Positions 22,601-37,209 are shown, numbered from the stretch's first letter. The stretch: DNA of 64,000 nucleotides from Gemmatimonadota bacterium (GCA_022563595.1 JADFNB010000001.1:65416-129415); one strand, 5' to 3'. Numbers and translations: made by a program. Notes: generated by a model not told the origin, from the letters alone.

Positions 22601-23512
22601 TCAAGCAGGGTTTTGGGGCTCCTCGGGCGGGATCACCCACCCCTCGTCCAGCAACGCTTTCCGATCCCGGTCCCTGCGGCGGCGGCGTGCCCAGACCACA
22701 CCAACGACTACAGCCGTCACGCTCCAGAACAGCGCGAACGACGTAAAGATCCGCAACCACCCGTATCGCGCGCGGATGTCGCGGTGCCACATCGCCTCCA
22801 GCTGATCCAGCGTGACGAGGTGGGTGCGCCGTACCGCCCGCTCGAAGCTGCCTGTCGCGCCGGCGTTGGCGATCAGCGGTCCGAGCCCTCGCTCTCGTCC
22901 CAATCGCTCCAAGAACAGCACCGCCGCCGTCGCGAGCGCGTACGCAGCCCGGGCGTGCGTCGGGCCGCTTCGCAGTTCCGCGTTGAGGCGTCCGAAAGAT
23001 GGGATGTCACCCGTCATCAGCGCCCAGTTCAACCCCAGCGCGTCGAGCCGTCCCCATTCCTGCGCCGCCCGGGCCGCATACCCCTCGGCGAACCATAGAG
23101 GCAGGCGCGCGGCCGCGCGATGGAGCGCCAGATGGGCGAGCTCGTGCGCGAGGGTACCGAACGGATCTCCGGCGAGCATGATCACTACCGTGTTGGACCT
23201 GGGGAAAGCCGCACCACCGCTCCACGACGGCAGGCGACCGCGGGTGACGGAATCGAAGCGCTCCGCGGAGCGCGTCACGATGAGCCGTATCGGGGCCGAA
23301 TCGAGCGCGGGCATCCCGGGCCACGGACCCGCACGGTCGGCGAATTCGGCCAGGGCCGTGGCGGCCGCCTCGTCACCCTGCCAGTATACCGCCTCCACCC
23401 TGCCCACCCGAACGGTAGCGGGCTGCTGGAAGGAGAGGCCGACTGATACCGCGAAGATTACGAGCGAGGAGGCTCCTGCCCCTGGGCGGCCAGGTCGAGC
23501 GCCTCGCGGCAT
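22601..23512 (-). CDS. Putative zinc metallopeptidase (HExxH) with a C-terminal TM helix
   Basis: LAHELAHLALH is an HExxH motif and FAEGYA lies about 20 residues downstream (gluzincin-like). C-terminal helix FALFWSVTAVVVGVVW. The start is uncertain: ATG at 23510-23512 was chosen, and the track ORF extends to 23560. Confidence 0.6.
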   Translation of the reverse strand: MPRGARPGRPGAGASSLVIFAVSVGLSFQQPATVRVGRVEAVYWQGDEAAATALAEFADRAGPWPGMPALDSAPIRLIVTRSAERFDSVTRGRLPSWSGGAAFPRSNTVVIMLAGDPFGTLAHELAHLALHRAAARLPLWFAEGYAARAAQEWGRLDALGLNWALMTGDIPSFGRLNAELRSGPTHARAAYALATAAVLFLERLGRERGLGPLIANAGATGSFERAVRRTHLVTLDQLEAMWHRDIRARYGWLRIFTSFALFWSVTAVVVGVVWARRRRRDRDRKALLDEGWVIPPEEPQNPA

Positions 23513-24321
23513 TTCTTGCCCCAGGGATTGAACTTGTTGGTTTCGAACCCTTTCAGCCACGTTGCCTTGGCAGCATCCCGGTCACCCGCGCGCCAGTGCG
23601 AGCGACCGAGTTCGTAGTACGCCTCGATGAGATTCGGTCCGAGCTGCAAAGCCTTCTGGAAAAACGTCTGCGCATCCTCGTACATCTCACGCTCGAAATA
23701 CACGAGCCCGAGGTAATAGTGCGCGTAGAGTGTCGCCTTCTTGTCGTTGTCGAGCCGGATTGCTTTGGAGAGGTGCTCGATCGCCTCGCCGAATATCTGT
23801 TTCTTGAGACAGACGTATCCGACATTGATCCGCGCCAGCGAGTTGGCTGGCTCTTTCATGAGCACCTTCTGGAAGGCCCCGAGTGCGTTGTCGTAGTCCT
23901 CGTGTTTCATCTGGGCCCAGCCGAGCAGCGACTCTGCCTGCACGTCGCCCGGCGAGTACTGGAGCGCCGTAGACAGCGCCTGGATGGCGCCTTCATAGTC
24001 TCCCAACGAGATGAGATTCCAACCTTTCTCTATCAGGGTCGAAGCGTCGATGTGGCTGGCGTGCAGCGCTGGCATCTGGCCCGTGAACTGCGGCGCCTGA
24101 TCTCCTATCTGGCTTTCCCGCAGTTCCTTGTATTTGTCGACCAGGACGCGGATGTCTTCCTTCAGTGCCTGCAGATCTGTGATCGACTCGTCGACGATCT
24201 TGAACAGCGCGATGATCTCCCGCTTGACCGCTTCGCGTTGACTATTCGACTTCGCTTCGTCGAGACGACGTGAGATCGACGAGTAGCTGGCGCGCAACGG
24301 CGCCACGGCTGCATCACTCAT
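23458..24321 (-). CDS. TPR-repeat protein with an N-terminal coiled-coil
   Basis: 287 aa with repeated TPR-like units (GDYEGAIQALSTALQYSPGD, EDYDNALGAFQKVLMKEPAN, QIFGEAIEHLSKAIRLDND, MYEDAQTFFQKALQLGPN). Confidence 0.8.
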   Translation of the reverse strand: MSDAAVAPLRASYSSISRRLDEAKSNSQREAVKREIIALFKIVDESITDLQALKEDIRVLVDKYKELRESQIGDQAPQFTGQMPALHASHIDASTLIEKGWNLISLGDYEGAIQALSTALQYSPGDVQAESLLGWAQMKHEDYDNALGAFQKVLMKEPANSLARINVGYVCLKKQIFGEAIEHLSKAIRLDNDKKATLYAHYYLGLVYFEREMYEDAQTFFQKALQLGPNLIEAYYELGRSHWRAGDRDAAKATWLKGFETNKFNPWGKKCREALDLAAQGQEPPRS

Positions 24322-24810
24322 GTCCCGCCCCCACCATCAAGTCCTCGAGGGTCACCCGCTCGGCGGACGACAAGAGCCGCGAGACCGCGAGGATGACAAT
24401 CGTCCTACCACCGACATTCAGAATCCCGCTCATGAACTCCGCCGCCAGCTCACGCACTACCCCCGTGTTGGATCGCCGCCTGGGGCATCCCATAGATAAC
24501 CGCCGTCTCCCGATCCTGCGCGAACCCCGCCCCACCGGCATCGCGAATGGCGCTCAGTCCTGCGGCGCCGTCCCGTCCCATGCCCGTCCATACGACTCCG
24601 ACCGCGTGGGGGCCGAACAGCTCGGCCACCGAACGAAACAGTGGATCTAGGGACGGACGCCCCACGCCGGGGCACGCCGGGTGAGCCGAAGGCAAGGGCC
24701 GTCGAACCCCATGTCCACCAGCAAATGATAATCGCCGGGTGCGACGTACGCCGTATCGGCCAGCAGGGGCGCCCTGCCAACTGGCAGTATACAGCGCCGT
24801 CGCGCGCCGC
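24314..24810 (-). pseudogene. cheB: CheB methylesterase remnant: only the C-terminal ~110 residues, split over three reading frames
   Basis: My minus-strand translation reads, in frame A, ..[35 protein letters not shown] then TAG (24647-24649). Frame B reads [69 protein letters not shown] then a stop (24450). Frame C reads [15 protein letters not shown]... These match the conserved CheB blocks (APGD.H, RPS.D.LF.S, TGMG.DG, GMP..A). The N-terminal part of the catalytic domain and any REC domain are absent. Confidence 0.8.
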
Positions 24811-24960
24811 TCACAGCCCCGGAAGCACGCTCCTAGCCAGCGCATCCCAGGTCTCCCTATTGCGAAAGAACTTGGTGACGTTGATCGTCAGCGTATCCAG
24901 CAGCCGCTCATACTCCGCCGTGTCGCATGCGAGGATCCTGGAGCGGCGGACAGGGCGGGA
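24811..24960 (-). pseudogene. cheR: CheR methyltransferase fragment (about 35 conserved residues, no start codon, premature stop)
   Basis: Minus-strand translation ..[41 protein letters not shown] then TGA (24811-24813). This matches the CheR N-domain/MTase junction motif (T.N.T.FFR....f..L). The SAM-binding domain is missing. Confidence 0.7.
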
Positions 24961-24973
24961 TCCTGCTCGTCCG

Positions 24974-26593
24974 TCAAGTGAGTGCGCTCAGCGTTTCGAG
25001 GTTGGTCTTGACCAGTTCGTGACCCGGGTTCAGCTCCAGAGCGTGTTTCCAGCAGGTGGCGGCCTGCTCGCGGTCGCCGCGCTTGTAGGCGATGTTGCCG
25101 AGCTTGAAGTAGATGTCGTCCCCGAGCGTGGGGTCGAGCTTCACCGCCCGTTGATATGCCGCAGCCGCGTCGTCATACTGGGTCGTGCGGTACAAGATAT
25201 CACCGAGATTCTTCGACAGTTGTGGTACCGACGGGTCGTTCGCGAGCGTGGACCGCAGGATCTCCTCCGCCTGCTCTAGCTCGCCCAGGATCTCCAACAG
25301 CGCCGCCAGGTTGTTGCACAGGATGGGATGCCCGGGATGCTGCTCGAGACCGTCACGCAGCAGCACCTCGGCGGCAGCGTATTCATCTTGCGCGGCGGCG
25401 GTGAGCGCCCTGGCCCAGTACCACAGTGGGGGAAGCTGGTTCTCGCCCGCGATCTCACATGCACGGTCCAACCGGCCTTCGGCCACCCGGTACTCCCCGC
25501 GCTGGAGGGCGACGACACCCCATCCGGTCATGATACGGTGGTCCCGCCGCGCGCGGGTCGCCGCATCACCGTATGCGGTATCCGCGTGATCGAACTGACC
25601 GAGTTGTTCGTAGGCGAGCGCCAGGTTGTGCAGCACGCTCGGTTTGGCCCCGACCCGCTCAGCCGCGGTCCGCAGGAACCCCATGGCGTCCTGCCATCGT
25701 GCGTGCTTCAGCGCCACGATACCGAGGTAGAAGAACGCCTCCCCGTCATCGGGCCGGAGTTCCGCTACCCGGCGGAATTCTCGCGCCGCCTCATCGAGCA
25801 TCCCGGTCTTGTAGAACACCACGCCAAGGTTGTGGTGTTCCTGGATGCGGACATCGTTCACGTCCGCCGGTCGCGGCGCCTGGCTCCTGCCAGTGCGGTG
25901 TGCGAATCCCGCAGAGATGAGCCCGTAGAGCGCTTTGCCCACCTCGAACTCCACGATGCCGGCGTCCTCGATCACACTTGCGACATCACGGACCCCATCC
26001 AGCAACGGGAGAATCTGCCGCTGTTGCTCGGTCAGCTCGATGTCGGAGGATTCGAGCCGCTCGCGGTCCACCGAGAAGACCAGGTCGAACGAAGTGATCT
26101 TCTTTTCGATCAGGCTCCACTCGTCGATGCGACGTGCGCCTTCGAGCAGCAGCGATTGAGGGCTGATCGAGACCAGGAATTCCTCCCGCTCGGGATACAC
26201 GTCGCTCTCGAAGCTGAACGTGCCCTGCGTCCAGGTGAAGAGGAAATAGACCGCTTCCTCTATCTGAACGCGTATGAAATGTTCGAGGTCCTCACGCGTT
26301 ATCGCATTGTGCGAGATGAGGATCTCGCCCAGCCGGCGGTCGCGCTCGTGAGCCTGCTCCTCGACCGCTGCGTTCAGCTGCTCCGGCGTGATCTTCTTAT
26401 GTTTGACGAGTATGTCACCGAGTCGATCCCGCCGGTTCACGATGGACGCGTACGAGATCCGCCCCTTGTCGAAGTAGATGTACCCAAAGTTGTTCCGGTC
26501 GGCGACCGAGAGGCAGCCGGGTTTCTGCCCCAACGCGAGGAGTTGGAACACGTCCGGCAACGACGCTTCCTTGAGGCTCCCCTTGATCGCCAT
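24974..26593 (-). CDS. PATAN (DUF4388) domain protein with a tandem MshEN/T2SSE_N-like motif and C-terminal TPRs
   Basis: Start chosen at ATG 26591-26593 (ATGA overlap with the upstream stop), giving [43 protein letters not shown] (DUF4388 signature). This is followed by RLGDILVKHKKITPEQLNAAVEEQ and RLGEILISHNAITREDLEHFIRVQ, and then by several TPR units. Confidence 0.85.
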   Translation of the reverse strand: MAIKGSLKEASLPDVFQLLALGQKPGCLSVADRNNFGYIYFDKGRISYASIVNRRDRLGDILVKHKKITPEQLNAAVEEQAHERDRRLGEILISHNAITREDLEHFIRVQIEEAVYFLFTWTQGTFSFESDVYPEREEFLVSISPQSLLLEGARRIDEWSLIEKKITSFDLVFSVDRERLESSDIELTEQQRQILPLLDGVRDVASVIEDAGIVEFEVGKALYGLISAGFAHRTGRSQAPRPADVNDVRIQEHHNLGVVFYKTGMLDEAAREFRRVAELRPDDGEAFFYLGIVALKHARWQDAMGFLRTAAERVGAKPSVLHNLALAYEQLGQFDHADTAYGDAATRARRDHRIMTGWGVVALQRGEYRVAEGRLDRACEIAGENQLPPLWYWARALTAAAQDEYAAAEVLLRDGLEQHPGHPILCNNLAALLEILGELEQAEEILRSTLANDPSVPQLSKNLGDILYRTTQYDDAAAAYQRAVKLDPTLGDDIYFKLGNIAYKRGDREQAATCWKHALELNPGHELVKTNLETLSALT

Positions 26594-28548
26594 CAGGTCA
26601 GCTCCTCGATGATGCGGTTTGCCGCGTCTGGCCAACGCCAGATCATCTTCTCCCGGCTCTGCACACCCCCGGAGGGTGTCACGACGATCCCGCTGGTGCG
26701 AAGTCGAGCCGACGAGCGCCGCGGCCGCTCTGCCACTCCTTCCAGTAGCTCGCGCGCGAACCCGACCGATACCGCTACTCCCTGTGATTCAGCGGAGTCG
26801 GTCACGCGTTGCACCGTGGCAATCACGGAGCGGAGTGACTCGGCCTGACGGTCGGCCAGATACGCGGCGAGGTCGTCATCAACGTCACCCACGCGGGCGC
26901 TCAACTCGCGCTTCACCAGCGCCAGGCGAAGGTCGCGGTCAGGCGGCGCAAGATGGGTAACGAGCCCACCCTCCATGCGCGATATGAGCCGCTCATTGAC
27001 GCCGTCGAGTTCTCGCGGCGGCAGGTTGACCGTAAAGATCACCTGGAACTGTTTATCGACGAGCACGTTGAACAGGTTAAACAACTCCTCCTGCGAGCGT
27101 TCCTTGCCTGCCAGCAGATGCACGTCGTCCAAGAGCAGCGCGGAGACCCTGCGGTAGCGCGACCTCCAGGCGTCGAGCCGGTCCCGCTCTATGGCCTGAA
27201 CCAACTCGTCGAGGAAGTCCTGAGCCGACAGGCACGCCACGAGGGCGTCGGGCCCGGCCGAGAGGGCGTGGCCGATCGCGTGCAGGAGATGCGTCTTCCC
27301 AACACCGGTCGGGCCGACGATCACGAAGGGGTTGTAGAGCGTTCCCGGATTCTCTGCGACCGCGCGCGCCGACGTGAGCGCGAGTCGATTGGACTCGGCC
27401 TGCACGAAATCATCGAACGCCCAGGCGGCAGACGGGCCCGGCGGCGGCGCTAGTCCGGCTTTGGCCAAGCGGACCAGCTCCTCCGCGTCGGCTAGCCGGT
27501 CCGGATCGTGGAACGCGGCATCGCCCGCACACGCGGCGTCGAGAGCCGTCATCTCCCGCTCGAGTTCCTTCAGGCGCGTGACGTCGAGCCCAAACTGGCG
27601 CACGACCACGTCCGCGCCCACCGGTGTCTGCTGTTCGAGGAGCTTCGCTATGCGGGCCGCACGGTACCCGTGCCCCTCCCAATACACGACCGCTTCATGA
27701 AGGCGCCTCCGCCACGCCTCCATCTGCTGTGACAGTGCGGTCCCGACCGATAACAGGAACTGGTCGAACTCGTCGGGGGCTGATGTAGCTTCGGCGGCCG
27801 GTTCCCCCACCGCCACCACCTTGGCGGACTCCTTCAGACCCAGCAACGTGCACGCCCCCTCCGCCGTGAGTGCCGCTTCGTTCACCGCCTGGAACGCTAT
27901 CAACCGGTTGAGGAGTCCCAGTAGCTCGCGCACGTTGCGCGACTCGTACTCGGCCACCGATGCCAGCACCGCCTGCTCGAAATTCACGCCACGCTCCTCG
28001 GCCTTGCGCTTGAGAATGGCAAGCCGGGTCTCGAACTCGGGCTGGTCGATATCGACCACGAGCCCGCCCGCGAAGCGTGAGGTAAGCCGCTCGTCGAGGT
28101 CCCCGATCCCGGTCGGGGGCCGGTCGCTCGAGAGGACGATCTGCTTTTGGGATTCCAGAAACGCCGTGATGAACCGCAGCAACTCCGACTGCGTCTCGAG
28201 TCGGTGGGCCAGAAACTGCACGTCGTCCAGCAACACGATATCGACCGAGTTGAACCTGTTGCGGAACGCGTCGCTCTGTCCCGCGGCGACGGCGGCGTGA
28301 TATGCTTCGACGAACTCCTCGAGGGTCAGATACTCGACGGCCAGTTGCGGCGAGATGGTCTGGGCAAGATGACCCAACGCCATCATCAGGTGGGTCTTGC
28401 CCATTCCGCTGGCGCTGTAGATGAAGAGCGGGTCGTACGCGGTTCCGGGGCTCTCGGCCACGGTGCGCGCCGCGGCGACCGCGAGCCGGTTGCTCGGCCC
28501 GACGACGAACGAGTCGAAGGTGAAGCGCGGGTTCAGCTCCCGGGTCAC
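26593..28548 (-). CDS. Tandem DnaA-type AAA+ protein (two DnaA domain-III modules, no domain IV)
   Basis: Module 1 (res ~6-235): [59 protein letters not shown]. Module 2 (res ~376-605): [48 protein letters not shown] linker of about 140 aa separates them. The C-terminal tail lacks the DnaA domain IV HTH. The GTG start overlaps the mglA stop (GTGA). Confidence 0.85.
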
Positions 28549-29144
28549 GTCGGACTTTCCTCGCTCAGCTTGCGGAGCACCCGCTCGGAGATGGCCTTCA
28601 ACGTCTCGAAGACGCCCCGGCCGGTCACCGCCGCCGCCGGGAAGCTCGGGACGCCGCGGAAGTTGAGCTGCTCGTCCATCTCCTCGTGTGTGAGCACCAG
28701 GTCGCGCGGCAGGTCCTGCTTGTTGTACTGCAGCACCAATGGCACCGTGCGCACATCGATGCCCTGCTCCAACAGGTTGGCTTGGAGGTTCTGCAGGCTC
28801 TCGATGTTCTCATCGAGCTGCCGGGCCTGACTATCGCTCACGAACACCACACCGTCCGCACCCTGCAGCACCAGCTTGCGGGTCGCGTTGTAGTAGACCT
28901 GGCCGGGAACCGTGTAGAGCTGGAACCGCGTCGTGAACCCGGAGATCGTGCCCAGCTCGATCGGAAGAAAATCGAAAAACAGGGTCCGACCCGTATGCGT
29001 CGCGAGCGAAACCATTCGGCCACGACGTTCTTCCGGCACCCGTGTGTAGACGTACTGCAGATTCGTCGTCTTCCCCGACCGTCCGGGGCCGTAGTAGACG
29101 ATCTTGCACGTGATCTCGCGGGTCCTGAAGTTGACGAGCGACAT
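28545..29144 (-). CDS. mglA: Ras-like polarity GTPase MglA
   Basis: [32 protein letters not shown] (intrinsic Arg finger), [12 protein letters not shown] (catalytic Gln) and QYNKQDLP. It is alignable along its whole length to Myxococcus MglA as I remember it. Confidence 0.93.
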
Positions 29145-29151
29145 GTGCCCC

Positions 29152-29619
29152 TTACTGGAAAAGGGTCGCGAGACTCTCGTTCAGATCCCGCTCAAAGTCC
29201 GCCGCCAGGACAGCTCGTTTGGGTGCCAGAGCCGGCGCTGCCGCGGACAGCTCCGCCACCAGCTCTTCGAAGAATAACTGTACCAGCCCGACCGAGGACT
29301 CGGCACCGTAGACCACCAAGACCAGCAGTCTGCCGCGGGGCGAGTCGAAACCCGCGAGGAACACGCCGTGCCGGTCCCCTTGGTGACTCAAGGCCCGGAA
29401 CTCCCGTCCCTGGAGCATGCGCGCGAGTTCACTGGTGGACGCGACGATCCCCGCGCCCAGCACGGCTGCCGACATGACGTCCACCGCTCGCGTGAACCCA
29501 TGCTGCGCCATGACCTGACCCGATGGAGTCATCACTAGGGTCAGCCGCGCACCCGCCTCACTGACGAATCGCTCGAGCGGGCCCAGGATCCAGGGCTCTA
29601 CCGCGCGGGTCGGCTTCAC
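29152..29619 (-). CDS. mglB: Roadblock/LC7 protein, MglB-like (putative MglA GAP)
   Basis: 155 aa immediately upstream of mglA (mglB-mglA order as in Myxococcus). Roadblock-like core ..[16 protein letters not shown]...[35 protein letters not shown]. The acidic C-terminal tail [14 protein letters not shown] resembles the MglB tail. GTG start. Confidence 0.78.
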
Positions 29620-29966
29620 GCAATCCCCTCAACGGCCCGCAGCATCTCGAGACGCGCGAGCCCCACGTTGACATCGGCTTCCCCTACCACGACGAGTACC
29701 AAGCCGTCGCCCGCCGGTACAGTGAGCAAGACTCCTTCCTCGGCCTGCAGGTGCACGAAGTAGGGCGTTCCGACACCGCTCGCCTCCGCGGCTCTATGGA
29801 GCCGCTTGACGAGCGATGCCGCCAGCGCCGCAACCGCGTTGCCGCGCACCCCCTCCATCAACGATTCCGCCACCACGATTCCGTCATCCGCCGCGACGAG
29901 CATCGCGCCGTGGACACCGCGCACCCGCGTGATGGTGTCCAGCAGCGCCACGAACCGGAAGTTCAC
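29616..29966 (-). CDS. Roadblock/LC7 domain protein (second paralog)
   Basis: Start chosen at GTG 29964-29966 (GTGA overlap with the upstream stop), giving VNFRFVALLDTITRVRGVHGAMLVAADDGIVVAESL...FVHLQAEEGVLLTVPAGDGLVLVVVGEADVNVGLARLEM, a typical Roadblock/LC7 fold pattern. The longer track ORF (to 30293) overlaps the upstream gene. Confidence 0.75.
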   Translation of the reverse strand: MNFRFVALLDTITRVRGVHGAMLVAADDGIVVAESLMEGVRGNAVAALAASLVKRLHRAAEASGVGTPYFVHLQAEEGVLLTVPAGDGLVLVVVGEADVNVGLARLEMLRAVEGIA

Positions 29967-30754
29967 CGCGGCTCTCCCTCGAGCCAGGCCCGCGCGGCGG
30001 CACCAGCCCGTTCGGCCATCAGCGCCACCCGTCCGGGCGGGATGCTCCGGTCGCATTTGACCAATAACAGTGCTTCTTCGGAAGGCCGCGACACGTACAG
30101 GTGACCCTGCGGCCCTTCCGCCACGATCGCGCGCCAGGCGCCCAGACCGAGCAGGCGTGCCGTGCGCTGGGCCTCCTGCGAGGCACCCGCAAGGTAGGCT
30201 GCGACCTCCTCGGCAGCATCCTCGTTCCGCGCATTGCGCAGCGAGCCACCGAGCACCCGTCCACGATCGTCGACCAGCAGGATGCCTTCCCACGATCCCT
30301 CGAACCCCGCGAACACGTCCGCGGTACGTTCCACGGGTTCGGCGGCCGCGCGCTCGGCCGCCGCCCGCACGCGCCGCAGCGCCTGGATCACCGACCCGTC
30401 GGTCGGGTCAACCGAGAGCGCCGTCTCGAGGTGATCGAGCGCCGCATCCAAGTCACCGTAGCGATAGAACAGAAACCCTATTCCCTTGAGGGCGCCGACG
30501 TGACGCGGCTCGAGCTGCAGGGTGCGCCGCCACGCCTCATGCGCAGCTTCTACATTGCCGGCGTCGATCAGGACCCGCGCGTACACGTCGTGAGCATCCG
30601 CGAGATCGGGATGGCGTTGCAGGCCGGTCAGCGCCACCTTGGCGGCGGCGTCCACCTGTCCGCGCACGCGCAGCGCCTCACCCAACTGGAGGAAGACCAG
30701 GCTGGCCGGATCTCGGGCAAGCTCCGCCGTCAGCCCCTTGATATCATCCGCCAT
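29963..30754 (-). CDS. TPR - Roadblock/LC7-like fusion protein
   Basis: Start chosen at ATG 30752-30754 (MADDIKGL..). The N-terminal half has TPR units (AHDVYARVLIDAGNVEAAHEAWRRTLQLEP, GDLDAALDHLETALSVDP). The C-terminal half, WEGILLVDDRGRVLGG...WRAIVAEGPQGHLYVSRPSEEALLLVKCD, has a Roadblock-like pattern. Confidence 0.7.
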   Translation of the reverse strand: MADDIKGLTAELARDPASLVFLQLGEALRVRGQVDAAAKVALTGLQRHPDLADAHDVYARVLIDAGNVEAAHEAWRRTLQLEPRHVGALKGIGFLFYRYGDLDAALDHLETALSVDPTDGSVIQALRRVRAAAERAAAEPVERTADVFAGFEGSWEGILLVDDRGRVLGGSLRNARNEDAAEEVAAYLAGASQEAQRTARLLGLGAWRAIVAEGPQGHLYVSRPSEEALLLVKCDRSIPPGRVALMAERAGAAARAWLEGEPR

Positions 30755-31925
30755 ATCGCGCCCGCAGGATCGCGTCGAGGGCCTGCGCCGCATCGGCGGC
30801 AGCCGTCACCCGGTTGCGCTCTTCCGGGTCGTCATCTTCCCCTCCCACGGTCAACGACCGCCGCCACCAATCCGCGGCCTCCGCCAGCTTCCCCTGCATC
30901 ACGAGCGCGTCGCCGAGGACACGGTGCCCCGGCGCCAGGAGCGGATCGAGACCGAGTACGCGGCGGCATTCCGCCTCACCTTCTCCTGGGCGTCCCGCAG
31001 CCAACTCAACGGTAGCGGCGGCCAAGTGCACCAGTGGAGATCCGGACTGGGTGGCAAGGAGCTTCTCGACCTCCTGGCGGGCCTGGGCAACCGAACGCTG
31101 CTCGAGCAGCAAGTCGATGCGCGCCAATGCGCTCTGCAGGTCACGCTCGTCACCCCCACCACCACCGCCACCTTTTTCCTCCTCACCGCCGCCTCCCGCG
31201 GCGCCCGAATCCCGTAGCGAGAGGATGCCCGCGCTCTGCAGTCCGAACACCATCTTCGCCACATCGAACTCGGCGCGACCCAGGATCTGGGCGATCCCGC
31301 GCAGATCGCGGGTGCCGTCGACCATCGCCAACACTTCCCACTCGAGGGGCAGCAGATCGAGTTGGCCGCCTTCACCCTCAGCCACGGGCTCCAGGACGGG
31401 GACGACGCCCAGATGGGGAACCTGTCGCTGGATCCGGGACCACTCGTCAGTGCGCCGGGCCGCCTCCATGAGAAGCACTTCGGTCGGGATGCGGACCGGC
31501 GCACCGGTCGCGAGATCCGTGGGCGGGCCTTCGGTGAAAGAAAAGTGCCCTTCCTGCCACCCCATCACCTCGAAGACCACCTCCTCGACCTGGAGTCGTA
31601 TCTGGCGCTCCAGATCACGCGGCGAAAGCGCACCGATCTCGACGAGGATCTCACCAAGGCGTCTGGTGTCTCCGCGCCGCTGCATGTCGTCGGCAATCTC
31701 CAGCTCACCCTCGGTGATCTTCCCGGCCCGAAGCAGGAGCGCACCCAACTGGTGCGGGTTGCTGCGGATCTGAGCGGCGACGACAGCGCCGCTCTCAAAC
31801 TGGATGGCACCGTCGTTCCGCCGCAATTGCGACGTGACGCGCAGCGTCCCGGTCTTCCTGCTCAGGTCGAGCAGTTGGAAGACATCGTGGATGCTCAGCT
31901 CCTTGAGCGGTCCTTCGATCGCCAC
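30744..31925 (-). CDS. PATAN (DUF4388) domain protein with a tandem MshEN/T2SSE_N-like motif, Gly/Glu-rich linker and C-terminal TPR
   Basis: MAIEGPLKELSIHDVFQLLDLSRKTGTLRV..GAIQFESGAVVAA (DUF4388), then QLGALLLRAGKITEGELEIADDMQ and RLGEILVEIGALSPRDLERQIRLQ. A low-complexity stretch GAAGGGGEEEKGGGGGGGDERD follows, then TPR-like helices at the C-terminus. Confidence 0.85.
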   Translation of the reverse strand: MAIEGPLKELSIHDVFQLLDLSRKTGTLRVTSQLRRNDGAIQFESGAVVAAQIRSNPHQLGALLLRAGKITEGELEIADDMQRRGDTRRLGEILVEIGALSPRDLERQIRLQVEEVVFEVMGWQEGHFSFTEGPPTDLATGAPVRIPTEVLLMEAARRTDEWSRIQRQVPHLGVVPVLEPVAEGEGGQLDLLPLEWEVLAMVDGTRDLRGIAQILGRAEFDVAKMVFGLQSAGILSLRDSGAAGGGGEEEKGGGGGGGDERDLQSALARIDLLLEQRSVAQARQEVEKLLATQSGSPLVHLAAATVELAAGRPGEGEAECRRVLGLDPLLAPGHRVLGDALVMQGKLAEAADWWRRSLTVGGEDDDPEERNRVTAAADAAQALDAILRARYGG

Positions 31926-31926
31926 G

Positions 31927-34605
31927 CTATGGGGCCTCTATTTGGAAGATATGCTTGAGATCGAGCGCCGTACGCGCGTGTCGGCGTGCTTTCTGCGCAT
32001 ACGATCCAGCCGGATCCAGCTGGACGACCCGTTCCCAGGCACGGACGGCGTCGCCGTAGCGGCGCAGGCGGGCCAACGCCACACCCATATAGAAGTGCGC
32101 GGCGATGTGGTCCGGATCATGTGCGCTGATGCGTCGGAACGCCTGGAGCGCCTGCTCGATCCGGCCGTCGTCTACCAGAACCTGCGCGAGCGCGAGCAGG
32201 GCATCGAGGTCGGACGGATCGGCATCCAAGATATCCACCAGGAGGTTAGCCGCCTCGCGAAACCGGGCCTTCCTGCGGTAGACCCGCGCGAGGGGGATCG
32301 CCGCCTCTGCGTAGGTGGGCAGCGCTTCCAGCGCCGCTCTGTATGCCGTCTCGGCCATCACCCAGTCCTCACGCTGCTCGTACACCGTCCCCAGCGCTAC
32401 GCGCGCCTGGACCAATCGCGGATCGAGCTCCAACGCAGCCTCGTACGCTTCCCGGGCCGTGTCGAGATCGCCAGTACCCAGCGCGATGTCGCCTTCGAGT
32501 TTCGGGATGTCGGCCCGTTGCGGTGCGCGCCGCCGTGCGGCGCGCACCGCTTCCACGGCGCCGGCCGGGTCACCATTCAGGCGACGCACCTCGGCGGCGG
32601 CGAGCAGCACCTCAAGATCGTCCCGGCATTCCGAGACGAGTCGTTCCGCATCCTCGCGCGCGTCCGAGCCGCGCCCCAACGCAATCAAGGCGCGTACCTC
32701 GCCCAGCCTGGCGTCCACGCGCTCGGGCGCGCGCAGGCGTGCCTGAGCATAGCGCTCGCGCGCCTCACCGTGGAGTCCGCGCCGCGCGAAGATCTCGGCT
32801 GCCAGCACCAGCACCTCCAGTTCGTCCACACCCCGCGCCTCTGCCCGGTTGACCTCGGCCGCGGCCAGCTCCAGCAGCCCCTTGGAGAGATAGTCGCGCG
32901 CCAGCCCCAGTGGGTCTCCTCCCACCCGGGACGGACGGGGAATCGGGCGCTCGAGTTCGCGGACGATCTGGTCCAGCACCGCGGGATCGAATCGCAGGGC
33001 CTGCGACGTCAACTCCGCGGCAACGTCAGCGGAGATCTCCGGTATGACCGAGATCGTGGAGTCCTCGTACTGGAGATCGATGGCGAGCCGAAACTTCTGC
33101 GGCACGTAGTAGGGATCGAGCGTCTGGGCGCGGGTCACCGCGCGGAGCCCGCCGTCGTAGTCGCCCAAGGCCGACAGTGTGAAGCTCAGGTTGTAGTGCG
33201 CCTCCGCCGATCCCGGGTCGCTCTCCACTGCGCGGGCGAAGGCGTTGCGGGCGTCGCTGATGCGCCCCAGCTCATTGAGCACCAGGCCAATCCCGTTCCA
33301 CGCCGGGGCCGACAGCGGGTCGACATCGAGGACCCCTTGATACGCCTGTAGCGCGAGCTGCAGCCTGCCGAGCTGCGCCAACAGCAGCCCCAAGTTCAAG
33401 CGCGCAACGAGCAACGACGCATCCGCGCGCATCGTGTCGTGGAATGCCTCGATCGCGTCATCGTGTTTGCCCTGATGCGCCAACGTCACCGCGAGGTTGT
33501 TGCGCGCCAGCGCATATTCGGGCGTGATCTCGATCGCCTGTCCGTAGGAGGCGATCGCGTCGGCGGGATGCCCCAGCTGGTGGTACACGACACCTCGCTC
33601 GTTCCACAGCTTGGGTGAGCCCGGCGCCTCCCGCACGAGCGTCTCGTACAGTTCGAGCGCCGAGCTGTAGCTCCGCTTCAGCAGATGCACCTCCGCCATC
33701 GCCTGGAGCACGAGATGCCGGTCTTCCCCGCGCTCCAGGGCGAGGCGGTACTCGCGCAGCGCCTCGTTGTAGTATCCCTTCTGCCGGAACGCGAGCCCGA
33801 GGTTGTAGTTGGCCAGCACCTGCCCTGCGATTACCTCGGGTTCGTCGGGGATGCGCATCGGCTGGCTCTTGCGGTCACCCACGTATCGCTCGAGCGACAG
33901 GTTCGTCTGAGCCCGCGCGAACGTGGGATTCAGCCGGATCGCCCGCTTGCTGGCCTCGCGTGCCGCCTCGTGCCGTCGCAGATCGCCGTACACGAATGCC
34001 GCTAGGTAGTGGGCATCGGCGTTCTCGGGGCTCAGCTCGATCGCCCGCTCGAGCTCCCCGATGGCATCCGTATCGAGACCCCGATTGTAGAGTGTTTCGC
34101 CCAGGTAGAAATGCACGACGCTGCTCTCGGCATCCAGATCCCGCGCGCGCTCGAACCATGCCGTTGCCGCCTCGAGTCTGCCCCGTAGCTTTTCAGCCAA
34201 ACCCAGCTGGATGAGAGCCGCGAGATCGTTCGGCAGCCGCGCCACGATGACCTCGAACTCCTGTATGGCGTCGTCGTACTGCCCGACGGAGGCGTAAGCC
34301 CGTCCCAGCTCCCAGCGAGCTTCCCGGTCGTCGGGCGTGGCACGCAACCGCTCGGTGAGCTGGGTGACACGACGGTCGTAATAACCGGTTTCTTTGTAGG
34401 CGATTTCCAGGTTGCGCTGCGCGACCGACATCCTGGTATCGAGTTCGAGCGCTCGGGTGAACGAGGCGATCGCCTCGTCGATCATCCCTTTCTGGTAGTA
34501 GAGAACGCCGAGATTGTTGTGCGCTCCCGGATCCGACGGGTCGATCCGTCGAGCGAACGAGCGCAGGGCCGCGAGGTCTCGTTCCGACACCACCTCGATC
34601 GACAT
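31927..34605 (-). CDS. Large TPR-repeat protein (892 aa)
   Basis: TPR units run almost end to end (e.g. GMIDEAIASFTRALELD, GQYDDAIQEFEVIVARLPND, GYYNEALREYRLALERG, GKHDDAIEAFHDTMRAD). Only 1 nt separates it from the downstream gene. Confidence 0.85.
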   Translation of the reverse strand: MSIEVVSERDLAALRSFARRIDPSDPGAHNNLGVLYYQKGMIDEAIASFTRALELDTRMSVAQRNLEIAYKETGYYDRRVTQLTERLRATPDDREARWELGRAYASVGQYDDAIQEFEVIVARLPNDLAALIQLGLAEKLRGRLEAATAWFERARDLDAESSVVHFYLGETLYNRGLDTDAIGELERAIELSPENADAHYLAAFVYGDLRRHEAAREASKRAIRLNPTFARAQTNLSLERYVGDRKSQPMRIPDEPEVIAGQVLANYNLGLAFRQKGYYNEALREYRLALERGEDRHLVLQAMAEVHLLKRSYSSALELYETLVREAPGSPKLWNERGVVYHQLGHPADAIASYGQAIEITPEYALARNNLAVTLAHQGKHDDAIEAFHDTMRADASLLVARLNLGLLLAQLGRLQLALQAYQGVLDVDPLSAPAWNGIGLVLNELGRISDARNAFARAVESDPGSAEAHYNLSFTLSALGDYDGGLRAVTRAQTLDPYYVPQKFRLAIDLQYEDSTISVIPEISADVAAELTSQALRFDPAVLDQIVRELERPIPRPSRVGGDPLGLARDYLSKGLLELAAAEVNRAEARGVDELEVLVLAAEIFARRGLHGEARERYAQARLRAPERVDARLGEVRALIALGRGSDAREDAERLVSECRDDLEVLLAAAEVRRLNGDPAGAVEAVRAARRRAPQRADIPKLEGDIALGTGDLDTAREAYEAALELDPRLVQARVALGTVYEQREDWVMAETAYRAALEALPTYAEAAIPLARVYRRKARFREAANLLVDILDADPSDLDALLALAQVLVDDGRIEQALQAFRRISAHDPDHIAAHFYMGVALARLRRYGDAVRAWERVVQLDPAGSYAQKARRHARTALDLKHIFQIEAP

Positions 34606-34609
34606 AGCG

Positions 34610-34864
34610 TCAGGTCAGGCGTATCGCGTCGAAGATGGCGTTCCGCGAGGCGATATCGGGAAGGAGGAGGAAATGTCCCGCCAGCCGCTGGCCCGCTTCC
34701 TGAAAATCGAAGTTCGTGCCGACGCAGAAGACGAAGTCCCGTTCCTGCCCGAAATTCAGATCCGTCGTCGTACGCACGGCAGCCGACAGATCGATGACGA
34801 GATTGGGCACCGATGGCAGGAGCATCATACCCATGAAATCGGAGCGCGCGTGGGAAAGATCCAT
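34610..34864 (-). CDS. CheC/CheX-family half-domain protein (possible remnant)
   Basis: Internal ATG at 34862-34864, 2 nt after the cheY stop, gives an 84-aa product. MMLLPSVPNLVIDLSAAV... and ...AGHFLLLPDIASRNAIFDAI resemble the C-terminal half of Bacillus CheC as I recall it (..YPSVPEVSLDMFGAV.. and ..AHMFMLPDYDSFEKLFVAL). The E-x2-N phosphatase helix that should precede PSVP is absent. Confidence 0.45.
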   Translation of the reverse strand: MDLSHARSDFMGMMLLPSVPNLVIDLSAAVRTTTDLNFGQERDFVFCVGTNFDFQEAGQRLAGHFLLLPDIASRNAIFDAIRLT

Positions 34865-34866
34865 GC

Positions 34867-35229
34867 CTACCCGAGGACCCTCTGGACGGCCTCTAGCACG
34901 CGAGAGGGCTGAAACGGCTTGACTAGGAAATCCTTGGCACCGGCCTGGATCGCCTCTGCCACGAGGGCTTGCTGCCCCATGGCGCTGCACATCAAGACCC
35001 GGGCGTTGGGGTCGTCCTTGATGATCTCACGTACCGCGTCGATGCCGCTCATGTCGGGCATCACGATGTCCATCGTGACCAGGTCGGGCTTGAGCTGTCT
35101 GTACTTCTCGACTGCCTGCAGACCGGTTGCGGCTTCGCCCACGATATCGAACCCAGCCTGCGACAGAATATCGCTGATCATGGTACGCATGAACATGGCG
35201 TCGTCGCAGACAAGTATCGTGTGGTTCAC
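34867..35229 (-). CDS. cheY: Single-domain response regulator CheY
   Basis: 120 aa: ILVCDDAMFMR (DD), LVTMDIVMPDMSG (phospho-acceptor Asp), LMCSAMG (Ser/Thr) and KDFLVKPF (Lys). All receiver residues are intact. Confidence 0.93.
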   Translation of the reverse strand: MNHTILVCDDAMFMRTMISDILSQAGFDIVGEAATGLQAVEKYRQLKPDLVTMDIVMPDMSGIDAVREIIKDDPNARVLMCSAMGQQALVAEAIQAGAKDFLVKPFQPSRVLEAVQRVLG

Positions 35230-35238
35230 GCATCCTCC

Positions 35239-35661
35239 CTAATGAGTGAGAAGCGGTCCCAGCAACGCGTCGAGGTCGAGCACGATGAACGCGCCGCCCG
35301 CGCGCTGACCTACTGCCCGAACCAGTCGCGGATCGATGCCCGGCAACTCACGACGGTGCGCGAGGTCACCGTCGGCGAGTGCTAAGAGGTCCAGCACCTC
35401 ATCGACGGTCACCGCGACGCTGCGGGACCCAACGGTGAGCAAGATGGTCGGACCGCCGTTCGCACTCTACTCCCGGCCGAGTAAGCGCGCGCCGTGGACA
35501 AGTGGAACGAGTTCGCCCCGCAGGTTGATCAGTCCCGCGATCACGGGTGGCGCGCCGGGAAGCCTGGTCGCCCGGCGCGGGGGTAGGATCTCGCGGACCG
35601 CCCGCACATCGGCGGCGCAGACCAGAACCGAAACCCGGAACACGACGAGGCGCAACCGCAT
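35239..35661 (-). pseudogene. cheW: CheW coupling protein interrupted by one in-frame amber codon (TAG at 35467-35469)
   Basis: Track ORFs 35467..35661 and 35239..35442 are in the same frame. Continuous read: MRLRLVVFRV..VREILPPRRATRLPGAPPVIAGLINLRGELVPLVHGARLLGRE-TAG-SANGGPTILLTVGSRSVAVTVDEVLDLL...FIVLDLDALLG. This is a full-length CheW of about 140 aa with conserved blocks on both sides of the stop. Confidence 0.8.
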
Positions 35662-35675
35662 CGAGGTCGGCCATC

Positions 35676-36647
35676 TTATTTAAACACACCAAGATAGTCC
35701 AGCACCCTAGGCCGAGCAAGCAACTCCGGGTCGGCGCTCGCCGCCTCCAGCCCGGGACGGAGGTCGCTCGGCCAATCCGCCTTGAAGACCAGCCATTCCC
35801 GACTCACGGGATGGGCGAATGCGAGGGACGCCGCATGGAGCGCCTGGCGTGGTGTTGCCCGCTCCACCGCGCCGGCGCGGGCCCGTTGCTGGCCGGTCAT
35901 CCGCCGGCTTCCGCCTCCGCCATAGACCTGGTCGCCGACGACCGGGTGCCCGATGTGGGCCAGGTGCACGCGGATCTGGTGGGTGCGGCCGGTCGTGAGT
36001 TGTACGCGAACCAAGTCGCACACATCGAACCGGGCGACCGGCTCGGCAATGCTGCACGCCGGCCGGCCCGTGGCCAGCACCGTCATGCGCTTGCGCTCCC
36101 GCGGATGTCGCGCGATCGGGGCATCGATCTCCACACGTCCTTTCAGATGTCCCCAAACCAGCGCCACGTAGCGGCGCTCGACTCGGCGGGCCGCCAGCGC
36201 CCTGCCGAGCCGCCGGTGCGCGTCATCGGTCTTGGCAATGATCAACAGCCCCGAAGTATCACGGTCGAGCCGATGCACCACTCCCGGGCGCCCGCCGGCG
36301 CCCGAGGAGAGGGGCGCGCCTCGCGCGATCAGCGCGTTCACCAGCGTGTCATCCCAGTGACCGGGCGCAGGGTGCACGACCAGTCCGGCAGGTTTGTTGA
36401 GGACCAGCAGGTACTCGTCCTCGTAGACAACGTCGAGATCCCGCGGGTGTGGTCGGAGCGGGCGCCGCCGCTCCGGCGCTGCGAACCGGACCTCGACCAG
36501 GTCCCCCCGCACCAGTGGCCGGCCGGCACGGCCCGCGACACCGTTGACCGACACGGCACCGCCCCCGATCAGACGACTCGCCTGGGTCCGTGACAGCGCG
36601 AGTTGATCAGCGAGAAAGCGGTCCAGCCGTTCGGTGACGTCCGCCAT
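35676..36647 (-). CDS. rluD: 23S rRNA pseudouridine synthase RluD (RluA family, S4 domain)
   Basis: Start chosen at the internal ATG (MADVTERLDRFLADQLALSRTQASRLI, S4 domain). Catalytic motif HRLDRDTSGLLIIAK and GRTHQIRVH. Confidence 0.9.
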   Translation of the reverse strand: MADVTERLDRFLADQLALSRTQASRLIGGGAVSVNGVAGRAGRPLVRGDLVEVRFAAPERRRPLRPHPRDLDVVYEDEYLLVLNKPAGLVVHPAPGHWDDTLVNALIARGAPLSSGAGGRPGVVHRLDRDTSGLLIIAKTDDAHRRLGRALAARRVERRYVALVWGHLKGRVEIDAPIARHPRERKRMTVLATGRPACSIAEPVARFDVCDLVRVQLTTGRTHQIRVHLAHIGHPVVGDQVYGGGGSRRMTGQQRARAGAVERATPRQALHAASLAFAHPVSREWLVFKADWPSDLRPGLEAASADPELLARPRVLDYLGVFK

Positions 36648-36687
36648 CACCTGGAACGCAATGCGCGTTCCGCCGGCCCCGGCGCCG

Positions 36688-37209
36688 TCAGGGGGAATAC
36701 TCGGCGGCGTCGGGCCGTTCGGCGCCCCGTTCACTGCCCCTCCCCTCCCTCCAGAGCACGACCGCGAGCGCAATCGCGCCGCAACTCACGGCCATGTCGG
36801 CAACGTTGAATGTCGGCCAATGGAAGGATCCGATGTAGACGTCGATGAAATCGACCACCCCGCGGGACGAACGAAATCGATCGATCAGATTCCCGGTGGC
36901 TCCGCCGCATACGAGTGCCAACGCCACCAGGCGGAAGGGTTCGCCCGGCTTGGTGTGACGAACCATCGTGCCGAGGACGGTCAACGCCACGACGGCCAAC
37001 AGCGTGAACACCCAGCGCGAGTGCTCCCCGACATGAATGCCGAAAGCGGCGCCCGGGTTGTAGACCAACCGGAGCAACAACCAGTCTCCCGCGATCCGCA
37101 CCGGGACGCGCGACAAGGTCGTTACCGCGACCATCTTGGTGAGGAAGTCGATGATGACGACTGCCACCAACACCCACCAGAACAACGGTCGTCTAGCGCC
37201 GCTTGTCAA
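36688..37209 (-). CDS. lspA: Lipoprotein signal peptidase II
   Basis: NPGAAFG, GGATGNLIDR and FHWPTFNVADMAVSCG, the LspA catalytic Asp regions. Four TM helices. Confidence 0.92.
   Translation of the reverse strand: MTSGARRPLFWWVLVAVVIIDFLTKMVAVTTLSRVPVRIAGDWLLLRLVYNPGAAFGIHVGEHSRWVFTLLAVVALTVLGTMVRHTKPGEPFRLVALALVCGGATGNLIDRFRSSRGVVDFIDVYIGSFHWPTFNVADMAVSCGAIALAVVLWREGRGSERGAERPDAAEYSP

Follow-up and report, generated by a model that had tools for sequence, protein, structure and literature searches.

A decayed chemosensory gene cluster around an intact MglA/MglB module in a Gemmatimonadales bacterium

Only in Myxococcus is it understood how a chemosensory pathway connects to a Ras-like polarity GTPase; the genes involved are dispersed in that organism, and years of genetic work were needed to establish the connection. 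A survey of the MglA family reports that mglA lies apart from the genes of its signalling partners in Myxococcus and Bdellovibrio; it places the Gemmatimonadetes MglA in group 1, mentions occasional PATAN neighbours (citing Makarova 2006) and describes no Che neighbourhood (PMC4316618). A study of Frz evolution proposes that MglAB were recruited to a chemosensory system in deltaproteobacteria (PMC4546325). Here we analyse a 64,000-nucleotide stretch of a Gemmatimonadota genome (GCA_022563595.1, JADFNB010000001.1:65416-129415; hereafter the window, with positions counted from its first letter), in which remnants of a chemosensory (Che) operon lie on both sides of an intact block of genes for the small GTPase MglA, its Roadblock-fold partner MglB and associated proteins (the Mgl block). 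We found no description of a Che-MglA gene cluster in Gemmatimonadota in the literature searched, which is not proof of novelty.

The source is a metagenome-assembled genome of a soil bacterium of the order Gemmatimonadales (3.25 Mb in 103 contigs, 96% complete, 0.07% contaminated), and the window is interior to a 176-kb contig. G+C content is about 65% across the region, with no compositional break, and between 22.6 and 40.9 kb every real gene is on the minus strand, so that the operon runs from high to low coordinates. Very probably the locus records a real and recent loss of an ancestral Che system that flanked the Mgl block.

Che remnants and the intact arrangement in relatives

Comparison loci from 20 relatives in three families were fetched around the gene for a doubled DnaA-type AAA+ protein, which served as the marker. 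In the two same-genus (sister) genomes, G001 and G002, open reading frame (ORF) maps and Pfam searches give the unbroken order rluD-cheW-cheY-cheA-cheC-(Mgl block)-cheR-cheD-cheB-cheW-cheW, the Mgl block encoding in turn a TPR protein, a PATAN protein, a TPR-Roadblock fusion, a small Roadblock protein, MglB, MglA, the doubled DnaA-type AAA+ protein and a PATAN-TPR protein. The sister proteins have 163 (CheW), 120 (CheY), 622 (CheA), 206 (CheC), 894 (the first TPR protein), 297 (CheR) and 408 (CheB) amino acids; CheA carries Hpt, P2, dimerisation, HATPase_c and CheW domains and no receiver, and CheB consists of a receiver and an esterase domain. The full Thermotoga/Bacillus-type gene content (CheA, CheW, CheY, CheR, CheB, CheC and CheD) is thus present in G001 and G002, and only fragments of it are found in the window. 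Downstream of the cluster the sisters and the window agree, with a 287-aa TPR protein, a peptidase-like protein and a 586-aa TPR protein.

A tblastn synteny map finds the intact order, over the extent of each locus, in 17 of the 20 relatives; among these, the G011 locus stops at the end of its contig and G029 gives no cheR match. The three exceptions are G015, which has no che genes, G019, without cheR, cheB and the downstream cheW genes, and G003, without cheR, cheD and cheB. Wherever cheA is full length (18 loci) it lies between cheY and cheC, upstream of the Mgl block, and no gene for a methyl-accepting chemotaxis protein (MCP) was found within the cluster in the relatives' loci. As judged from gene order, then, a supercluster in which two che halves flank the MglA/MglB module is ancestral and order-wide in Gemmatimonadales. 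Stops were flagged inside the P5 matches of many relatives' CheA; we read them as the gene's own stop, which is shown in G002, where the P5 match ends at the last base of the cheA frame with the stop codon (TAG) included, and is assumed elsewhere. An Acidobacteriaceae locus (L028) from the search for related loci was rejected, its protein being an ordinary DnaA rather than the doubled one.

Lesions in the window were mapped against G001 (coordinates of genes and remnants are in Table 1). At the upstream end, cheW1 is interrupted by a TAG at 35467-35469, inside a variable loop; its two halves still match Pfam CheW (E 1.7e-14 and 4.5e-4), and it shares 65% identity with the intact CheW (163 aa) of G001. 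The next gene, cheY, is complete, has its own ribosome-binding site AGGGAGGA and encodes a protein 88% identical to the G001 ortholog. Its best match among solved structures is Thermotoga maritima CheY (1TMY, E 6e-51, full length), and in the alignment with that protein the Asp/Asp/Asp/Ser/Lys positions of a phospho-acceptor receiver are retained. Then comes a short ORF that joins the first 4-5 codons of cheA (ATG GAT CTT TCC, MDLS) in-frame to cheC residues ~125-206, by alignment with the intact 206-aa CheC of a same-genus genome. A deletion of ~2.2 kb, from cheA codon ~5 to cheC codon ~125, has removed cheA and the 5' half of cheC, and a tblastn search of the region with G001 CheA gave no match. 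The end points of this deletion have the tetranucleotide ACGC in common, as expected for a deletion by illegitimate recombination or slippage.

At the downstream end, the PATAN-TPR gene is followed by ~650 nt of debris spread over three frames, with CheR-N-like and CheB-esterase-like stretches. The cheR remnant has an internal deletion of ~120 nt with a change of frame, and a TGA at 24811-24813 replaces a conserved Trp. The next deletion begins at cheR residue 135, takes in the whole of cheD and stops at cheB residue 279, so that the CheB receiver domain and the first half of its esterase domain are lost; what is left of cheB is frameshifted around 24650-24680. The last deletion cuts cheB off from residue 385 onwards and takes with it cheW2 and the first 124 codons of cheW3. 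The cheW3 stop overlaps the ATG of the next gene, and the same stop/start overlap is seen in the intact G002. The cluster therefore holds no intact cheW (the first has the TAG, the second is gone and the third is 48 codons), and its lesions come to two nonsense codons, two frame changes (in cheB and at the internal cheR deletion) and four deletions. Since each of the che fragments aligns at 59-88% identity with the relatives' intact orthologs, and in the same order, they are far beyond chance.

Each deletion left a short 3' gene end abutting the start of the next retained gene. We infer from these spared ends that there was selection against deletions disturbing the expression of downstream genes.

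A preliminary description of the window, made from the sequence alone, had placed Che-type genes at both ends of the block: a cheW with a nonsense codon, an intact cheY and half a CheC upstream, and a cheR fragment and cheB tail downstream. Translation and Pfam bear this out; the half CheC is the segment given above, fused to the first cheA codons, and the cheW3 tail is an addition. The synteny comparison that it proposed has now located an intact ancestral arrangement both within the genus and across the order: the relatives do not carry the same fragments, and in them the Che and Mgl genes are adjacent in intact form.

All eight genes of the Mgl block are intact in the window, and the MglA gene adjoins that for the Roadblock-fold MglB. 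The first of them, for the 892-aa TPR protein, is 73% identical to its G001 counterpart over the full length.

Table 1. Genes and gene remnants of the cluster in the window, in order of transcription
Feature	Position	Strand	State and size	Pfam match or relation to sister or intact protein
rluD	35676-36773	minus	first in transcription order, ahead of cheW1	
cheW1 pseudogene	35239-35661	minus	full-length CheW domain in one frame, single in-frame TAG	
cheY	34867-35229	minus	intact, 120 aa, single-domain response regulator	Response_reg, E 2e-30
cheA'-'cheC fusion ORF	34610-34864	minus	84 aa	no Pfam match alone
TPR protein, first Mgl-block gene	31927-34605	minus	intact, 892 aa	TPR families
PATAN (DUF4388) protein	30744-31925	minus	intact, 393 aa	DUF4388, E 4e-31; full-length G001 match
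TPR-Roadblock fusion	29963-30793	minus	intact	Robl_LC7 and TPR; full-length G001 match
Small Roadblock protein	29616-~29966	minus	intact	Robl_LC7; full-length G001 match
mglB	29152-29619	minus	intact	Robl_LC7; 78% identical to G001
mglA	28545-29144	minus	intact, 199 aa	Arf/Ras; 91% identical to G001
Doubled DnaA-type AAA+ protein	26593-28548	minus	intact, 651 aa	Bac_DnaA x2, E 6e-103
PATAN-TPR protein, last Mgl-block gene	24974-26593	minus	intact	DUF4388, E 9e-38, and TPR; 75% identical to G001
cheR remnant	24772-24972	minus	remnant	residues ~28-37 and 78-134 of 297-aa CheR
cheB remnant	24459-24769	minus	remnant	residues 280-384 of 408-aa CheB; tail CheB_methylest, E 1e-24
cheW3 tail	24314-24460 (codons 24317-24460)	minus	remnant	last 48 codons of third CheW
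TPR protein after cheW3	23458-24321	minus	287 aa	

Neither of the two PATAN (DUF4388) proteins has a PatA-type receiver domain; both are TPR-fused instead. CheY, a separate protein, supplies the cluster's sole receiver, and this suggests that a PatA-like function is split over two proteins.

Che loss in the genome and in the order

The damage extends well beyond the operon. No MCPsignal match above the Pfam cut-off was found in the 96%-complete genome. The sole CheW-domain match in the whole genome is the cheW1 pseudogene, so there is no CheA anywhere in it. The preliminary description had noted that CheA and MCP are absent from the block; the full-genome search found neither of these two components of a functional chemosensory pathway. 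The three MCP loci of G001, with their flanks, were then searched against the source genome. At the site of a 592-aa MCP (C27:43730-44011) the C-terminal 94 residues remain, and at that of a 731-aa MCP (C15:104287-104921) an internal deletion has left residues 27-165 and a piece of the signalling domain; the flanks are present at both. A 742-aa MCP (C88:38742-39011) has been cleanly removed, with ~270 bp between the flanks compared with 2.25 kb in G001. At least seven deletions, on four contigs, thus fall in one pathway, which is hard to reconcile with an assembly artefact. The genome is smaller than those of its two congeners (3.25 Mb, compared with 4.0 and 3.9 Mb), consistent with a general reduction by deletions that includes the loss of Che.

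Component counts were made over 41 Gemmatimonadales genomes. The doubled DnaA-type marker has a full-length or split ortholog in 39 of them; in the other two (G031 and G035, of genus g29) the marker query matches only at the level of ordinary DnaA. FlhA is found in only eight of the 41, and neither in the source genome nor in either congener, so a flagellar output of the kind that the Thermotoga/Bacillus set has is missing from 33 genomes. CheW domains are present in 40 of the 41 and MCPs in 39, the typical CheW-domain count being equal to the cluster's four genes, and each of the 41 encodes several ATPases of the PilT family that score above the curated cut-off. For most of the order, then, the cluster is the only Che system, is under strong constraint without flagella, and is wrapped around the MglA/MglB/PATAN block. 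On linkage and distribution, the most economical reading would be that phosphorylated CheY (CheY~P) modulates the polarity block and thereby pilus-based motility.

Che loss recurs across the order, via intermediate states. No CheW domain of any kind is found in 15 of 201 Gemmatimonadales genomes (those at least 90% complete), which belong to at least eight genera; the doubled DnaA-type marker is retained in eight of the 15 and absent from seven. In genus g14 (G015 and three further genomes) the TPR gene that opens the Mgl block comes immediately after rluD, and no che debris was found at the G015 locus. An intermediate arrangement, rluD-cheY-cheA-cheC-(Mgl block), occurs in G063, from the source genome's own family, and in G124 and G208, from another. 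Their CheA lacks the P5 (CheW-like) domain and ends after HATPase (L033:13606-15042 in G063, L038:13437-14915 in G124 and L040:13522-15015 in G208); no cheW, cheR, cheD or cheB was found in these genomes, nor an MCP genome-wide. To judge by these gene sets, this looks like a stable, receptor-independent CheA-CheY-CheC module. Two independent lineages that keep a receptor-less kinase with CheY and CheC beside the Mgl block are the best indirect evidence that the target of the phosphorelay is encoded in the block. The source genome represents a stage in the transition from the full system to the Mgl-only state.

The marker is missing from genus g29, which has kept CheW domains, and from G068, G071, G097, G108, G146, G194 and G066, which have one CheW domain or none. 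Such marker-less genomes mean that loss of the whole cluster and loss of the Mgl genes only also occur.

Timing, the orphan CheY and the readings weighed

A reference tree was built from seven retained genes and its topology was then fixed for branch comparison. The source genome, G001 and G002 form a near-trichotomy with terminal branches of 0.21-0.23. For each gene a branch ratio was taken, its terminal branch in the source genome divided by the mean of the two sisters. The ratio is 0.5-1.5 for the seven Mgl-block genes tested and rluD, and it is in the same range for the pseudogene cheW1 (1.15) and for the fragments of cheB (1.04) and cheR (0.83). The pooled excess of changes in the dead fragments is small (86 versus 66). 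Since the dead fragments show so little excess divergence, their inactivation is recent relative to divergence within the genus. An apparent six-fold acceleration of the cheC tail was rejected as an artefact: ~30 of the columns were non-homologous, being the 3' end of cheY translated out of frame, and no significant excess is left in the 78 columns of true homology.

The one gene that stands out is the intact cheY, with a branch ratio of 4.15. Tajima-type counts give 10-11 unique changes in CheY here and 0-3 in a sister (p 0.002-0.057), compared with a nearly symmetric 490 versus 432 for the pooled Mgl block, in which neither MglA nor MglB is accelerated. Five private substitutions affect columns that show no variation among 18 other genomes: I-to-M following the DD pair, E-to-A within GEAETG, G-to-S within PDMGG, V-to-A within ALVVEA and V-to-L within DFVVKP. 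Codon counts of nonsynonymous and synonymous changes (N/S) are 6/15 here and 5/42 in the sisters (p 0.08), a trend only; the counts require identical sister codons, hence the few sites. Across the order CheY shows 83-94% identity, which makes it better conserved than MglA, and it is because this baseline rate is so low that relaxation is visible in it. The roughly four-fold longer branch fits relaxed constraint. Nor is the intact frame by itself evidence of function: the remnants have ~4 small disabling lesions in ~1320 nt, at which density a 360-nt gene escapes about one time in three by our Poisson estimate. For the orphan CheY we favour drift as more probable than retained function.

The 892-aa TPR protein also departs somewhat from the rest of the block. 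Its N/S is raised on this branch (47/80, compared with 71/247 in the sisters, p 0.002), and it has six private changes at otherwise invariant columns, a count that is highest of all, at 18, in the Che-less G015; its amino-acid branch length is not raised (1.08x). The signal is a weak one, and this protein may be the interface to the Che system.

The course of events is most probably as follows. The chemosensory pathway collapsed recently, after the split from the two sequenced congeners. A microhomology-flanked deletion took cheA and half of cheC, and three further deletions removed part of cheR; most of cheR, cheD and most of cheB; and the end of cheB with cheW2 and most of cheW3. Point lesions arose in what remained (the TAG in cheW1, the TGA in cheR and the frameshift in cheB), and three MCP genes elsewhere in the genome were deleted or truncated. 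The spared 3' ends presumably carry the downstream start regions, which would leave the Mgl block expressible from the same operon, and cheY, its kinase lost, would most likely owe its intact state to its small size, having so far escaped a lesion. Ancestrally, as linkage and distribution suggest, CheY~P would have modulated the co-encoded Mgl/PATAN/Roadblock module and through it type IV pilus motility; the organism would now run its Mgl module without chemosensory input, as several other Gemmatimonadales appear to do.

Several points weigh against this account. The TAG, the TGA, the frameshift and the fixation of the lesions in the population have the metagenome assembly as their sole source. 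The proposed functional link from Che to Mgl is drawn from synteny and distribution, and the two modules are separable, as Che-less genomes with Mgl genes and the CheW domains of g29 without the doubled DnaA gene demonstrate. In the flagellated G003 and G029 the cluster is the only Che system, and there it may also or primarily serve flagella. Finally, the per-site excess divergence of CheY is, if anything, greater than that of the dead fragments (the numbers are small), which purely simultaneous neutral drift would not predict.

This last point speaks for the idea that CheY has been kept since it still works, whether phosphorylated by another kinase or by acetyl phosphate or active in the unphosphorylated form, and regulates the Mgl/PATAN/Roadblock proteins, its fast change being adaptive re-tuning. 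We consider this unlikely. The intact frame, the strong ribosome-binding site and the preserved catalytic residues would suit a working protein, but luck would preserve such a gene as often as estimated above, and the five substitutions at invariant columns are not what continued function leads one to expect. The two receptor-less, CheW-less lineages that keep cheY, the P5-less cheA and cheC by the Mgl block do indicate that the phosphorelay is valuable without chemoreceptors; here, however, there is no CheA of any kind in the genome and the phosphatase CheC is destroyed, and genus g14 lost cheY cleanly while the Mgl block was kept.

It is very improbable that the lesions come from metagenome assembly or binning, or from a minority variant, and that the Che pathway really works. 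Single-base lesions in an assembly of 103 contigs could be errors, but the region lies in the middle of its contig and contains four separate deletions, one of them an exact in-frame join with microhomology; three more deletions, with conserved flanks, are at the MCP loci on three other contigs, no CheA or MCP turns up in a genome of this completeness and low contamination, and the same end state is reached in other high-quality genomes of the order.

The second of two readings offered in the preliminary description, that the MglA module took the place of the kinase core (cheA and mcp) of a Che operon, is suggested by the window taken alone, where the Mgl block sits amid Che fragments with no cheA, but is refuted by the comparison: cheA and the Mgl block coexist in the 18 loci described above, the place of cheA is between cheY and cheC and that of the Mgl block between cheC and cheR (so that the block does not occupy the expected position of cheA and mcp), the cluster never includes an MCP gene, and the ~2.2-kb cheA deletion has left a scar still readable as the cheA'-'cheC fusion. 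Its first reading, that a Frz-like Che pathway once fed into MglA and is being lost, leaving an orphan CheY, holds as regards the loss and the orphan, on the relatives' synteny and the lost MCPs; in composition, however, the pathway does not resemble Frz, and an input to MglA is what the conserved linkage suggests.

With recent loss of an ancestral system as the preferred reading, the decayed operon itself is ordinary reductive evolution, and its value is as a pointer to the supercluster and to a stepwise reduction series. In Gemmatimonadales the presumed Che input and the MglA/MglB output, together with PATAN, TPR and Roadblock proteins and the doubled DnaA-type ATPase, are found in one gene string, and since this is the only Che system in most species, which have no flagella, the list of candidate CheY targets is short. 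We regard it as possible, and hold the idea tentatively, that the supercluster encodes a hard-wired chemosensory-to-small-GTPase pathway, in which CheY~P, the product of a classic CheA, would have the co-encoded PATAN-TPR, TPR and Roadblock partners of MglA as its direct targets and so steer type IV pilus polarity. If so, it would in effect be a PatA-type regulator split into separate proteins, and the first case of Che input and MglA output encoded in one operon. The reduction series would offer a dissection of it: the full system, the system without adaptation genes, receptor-less CheA (no P5) with CheY and CheC, CheY only (the source genome), and the Mgl block only. Within this series the source genome is a dated natural knock-out, its sensory half just deleted and its Mgl half untouched at the normal rate, and that the Mgl half is intact at a normal rate after Che loss implies that the polarity module can stand alone.

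Comparison with known systems

Lineages that give up chemotaxis or motility lose its genes by pseudogene formation and deletion. The source genome resembles this general pattern of reductive loss in having nonsense, frameshift and deletion lesions across a pathway and its receptors with the neighbouring genes intact, and it differs in that only the sensory input is lost, the presumed output (the Mgl block and the PilT paralogues) being kept.

In gene content the intact relatives have the same set as T. maritima and Bacillus subtilis, including a CheA with the classic five domains. This set is reportedly class F1 in the classification of Wuichet and Zhulin (2010). T. maritima CheA (1b3q) is near the top of the structure matches of the relatives' CheA, and these and the CheY matches are the sole support for an F1-like label. 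The Thermotoga and Bacillus systems drive flagella, whereas the 33 relatives without FlhA keep the cluster as their only Che system; moreover, in Gemmatimonadales the two halves of the set are split by the eight-gene Mgl/PATAN/Roadblock block.

The cyanobacterial Tax/Pix systems with PatA-type (PATAN-receiver) regulators are alike in combining Che-like signalling, PATAN proteins and control of pilus direction (PMC11181946). In Gemmatimonadales, by contrast, PATAN is fused to TPR rather than to a receiver, and the receiver is the separate CheY; the likeness is drawn from the genes alone.

The Frz/MglA system of Myxococcus xanthus (with RomR, FrzX and FrzZ) is similar in that a Che-type pathway is associated with MglA, a Roadblock MglB and type IV pili, and the MglA proteins of the two fall in the same group 1 (PMC4316618). 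However, the Myxococcus frz and mglBA genes are not neighbours (PMC4316618), whereas those of Gemmatimonadales are strung together. In Myxococcus CheA is fused to a receiver (FrzE), and the cluster itself encodes a cytoplasmic MCP (FrzCD); the Gemmatimonadales CheA has no receiver and the MCPs are encoded elsewhere. The dual-receiver FrzZ has no counterpart in the intact relatives, where no dual-receiver gene is found, and Gemmatimonadales has in addition CheC, CheD and a stand-alone Thermotoga-type CheY, in a Che set whose part in the window is dead.

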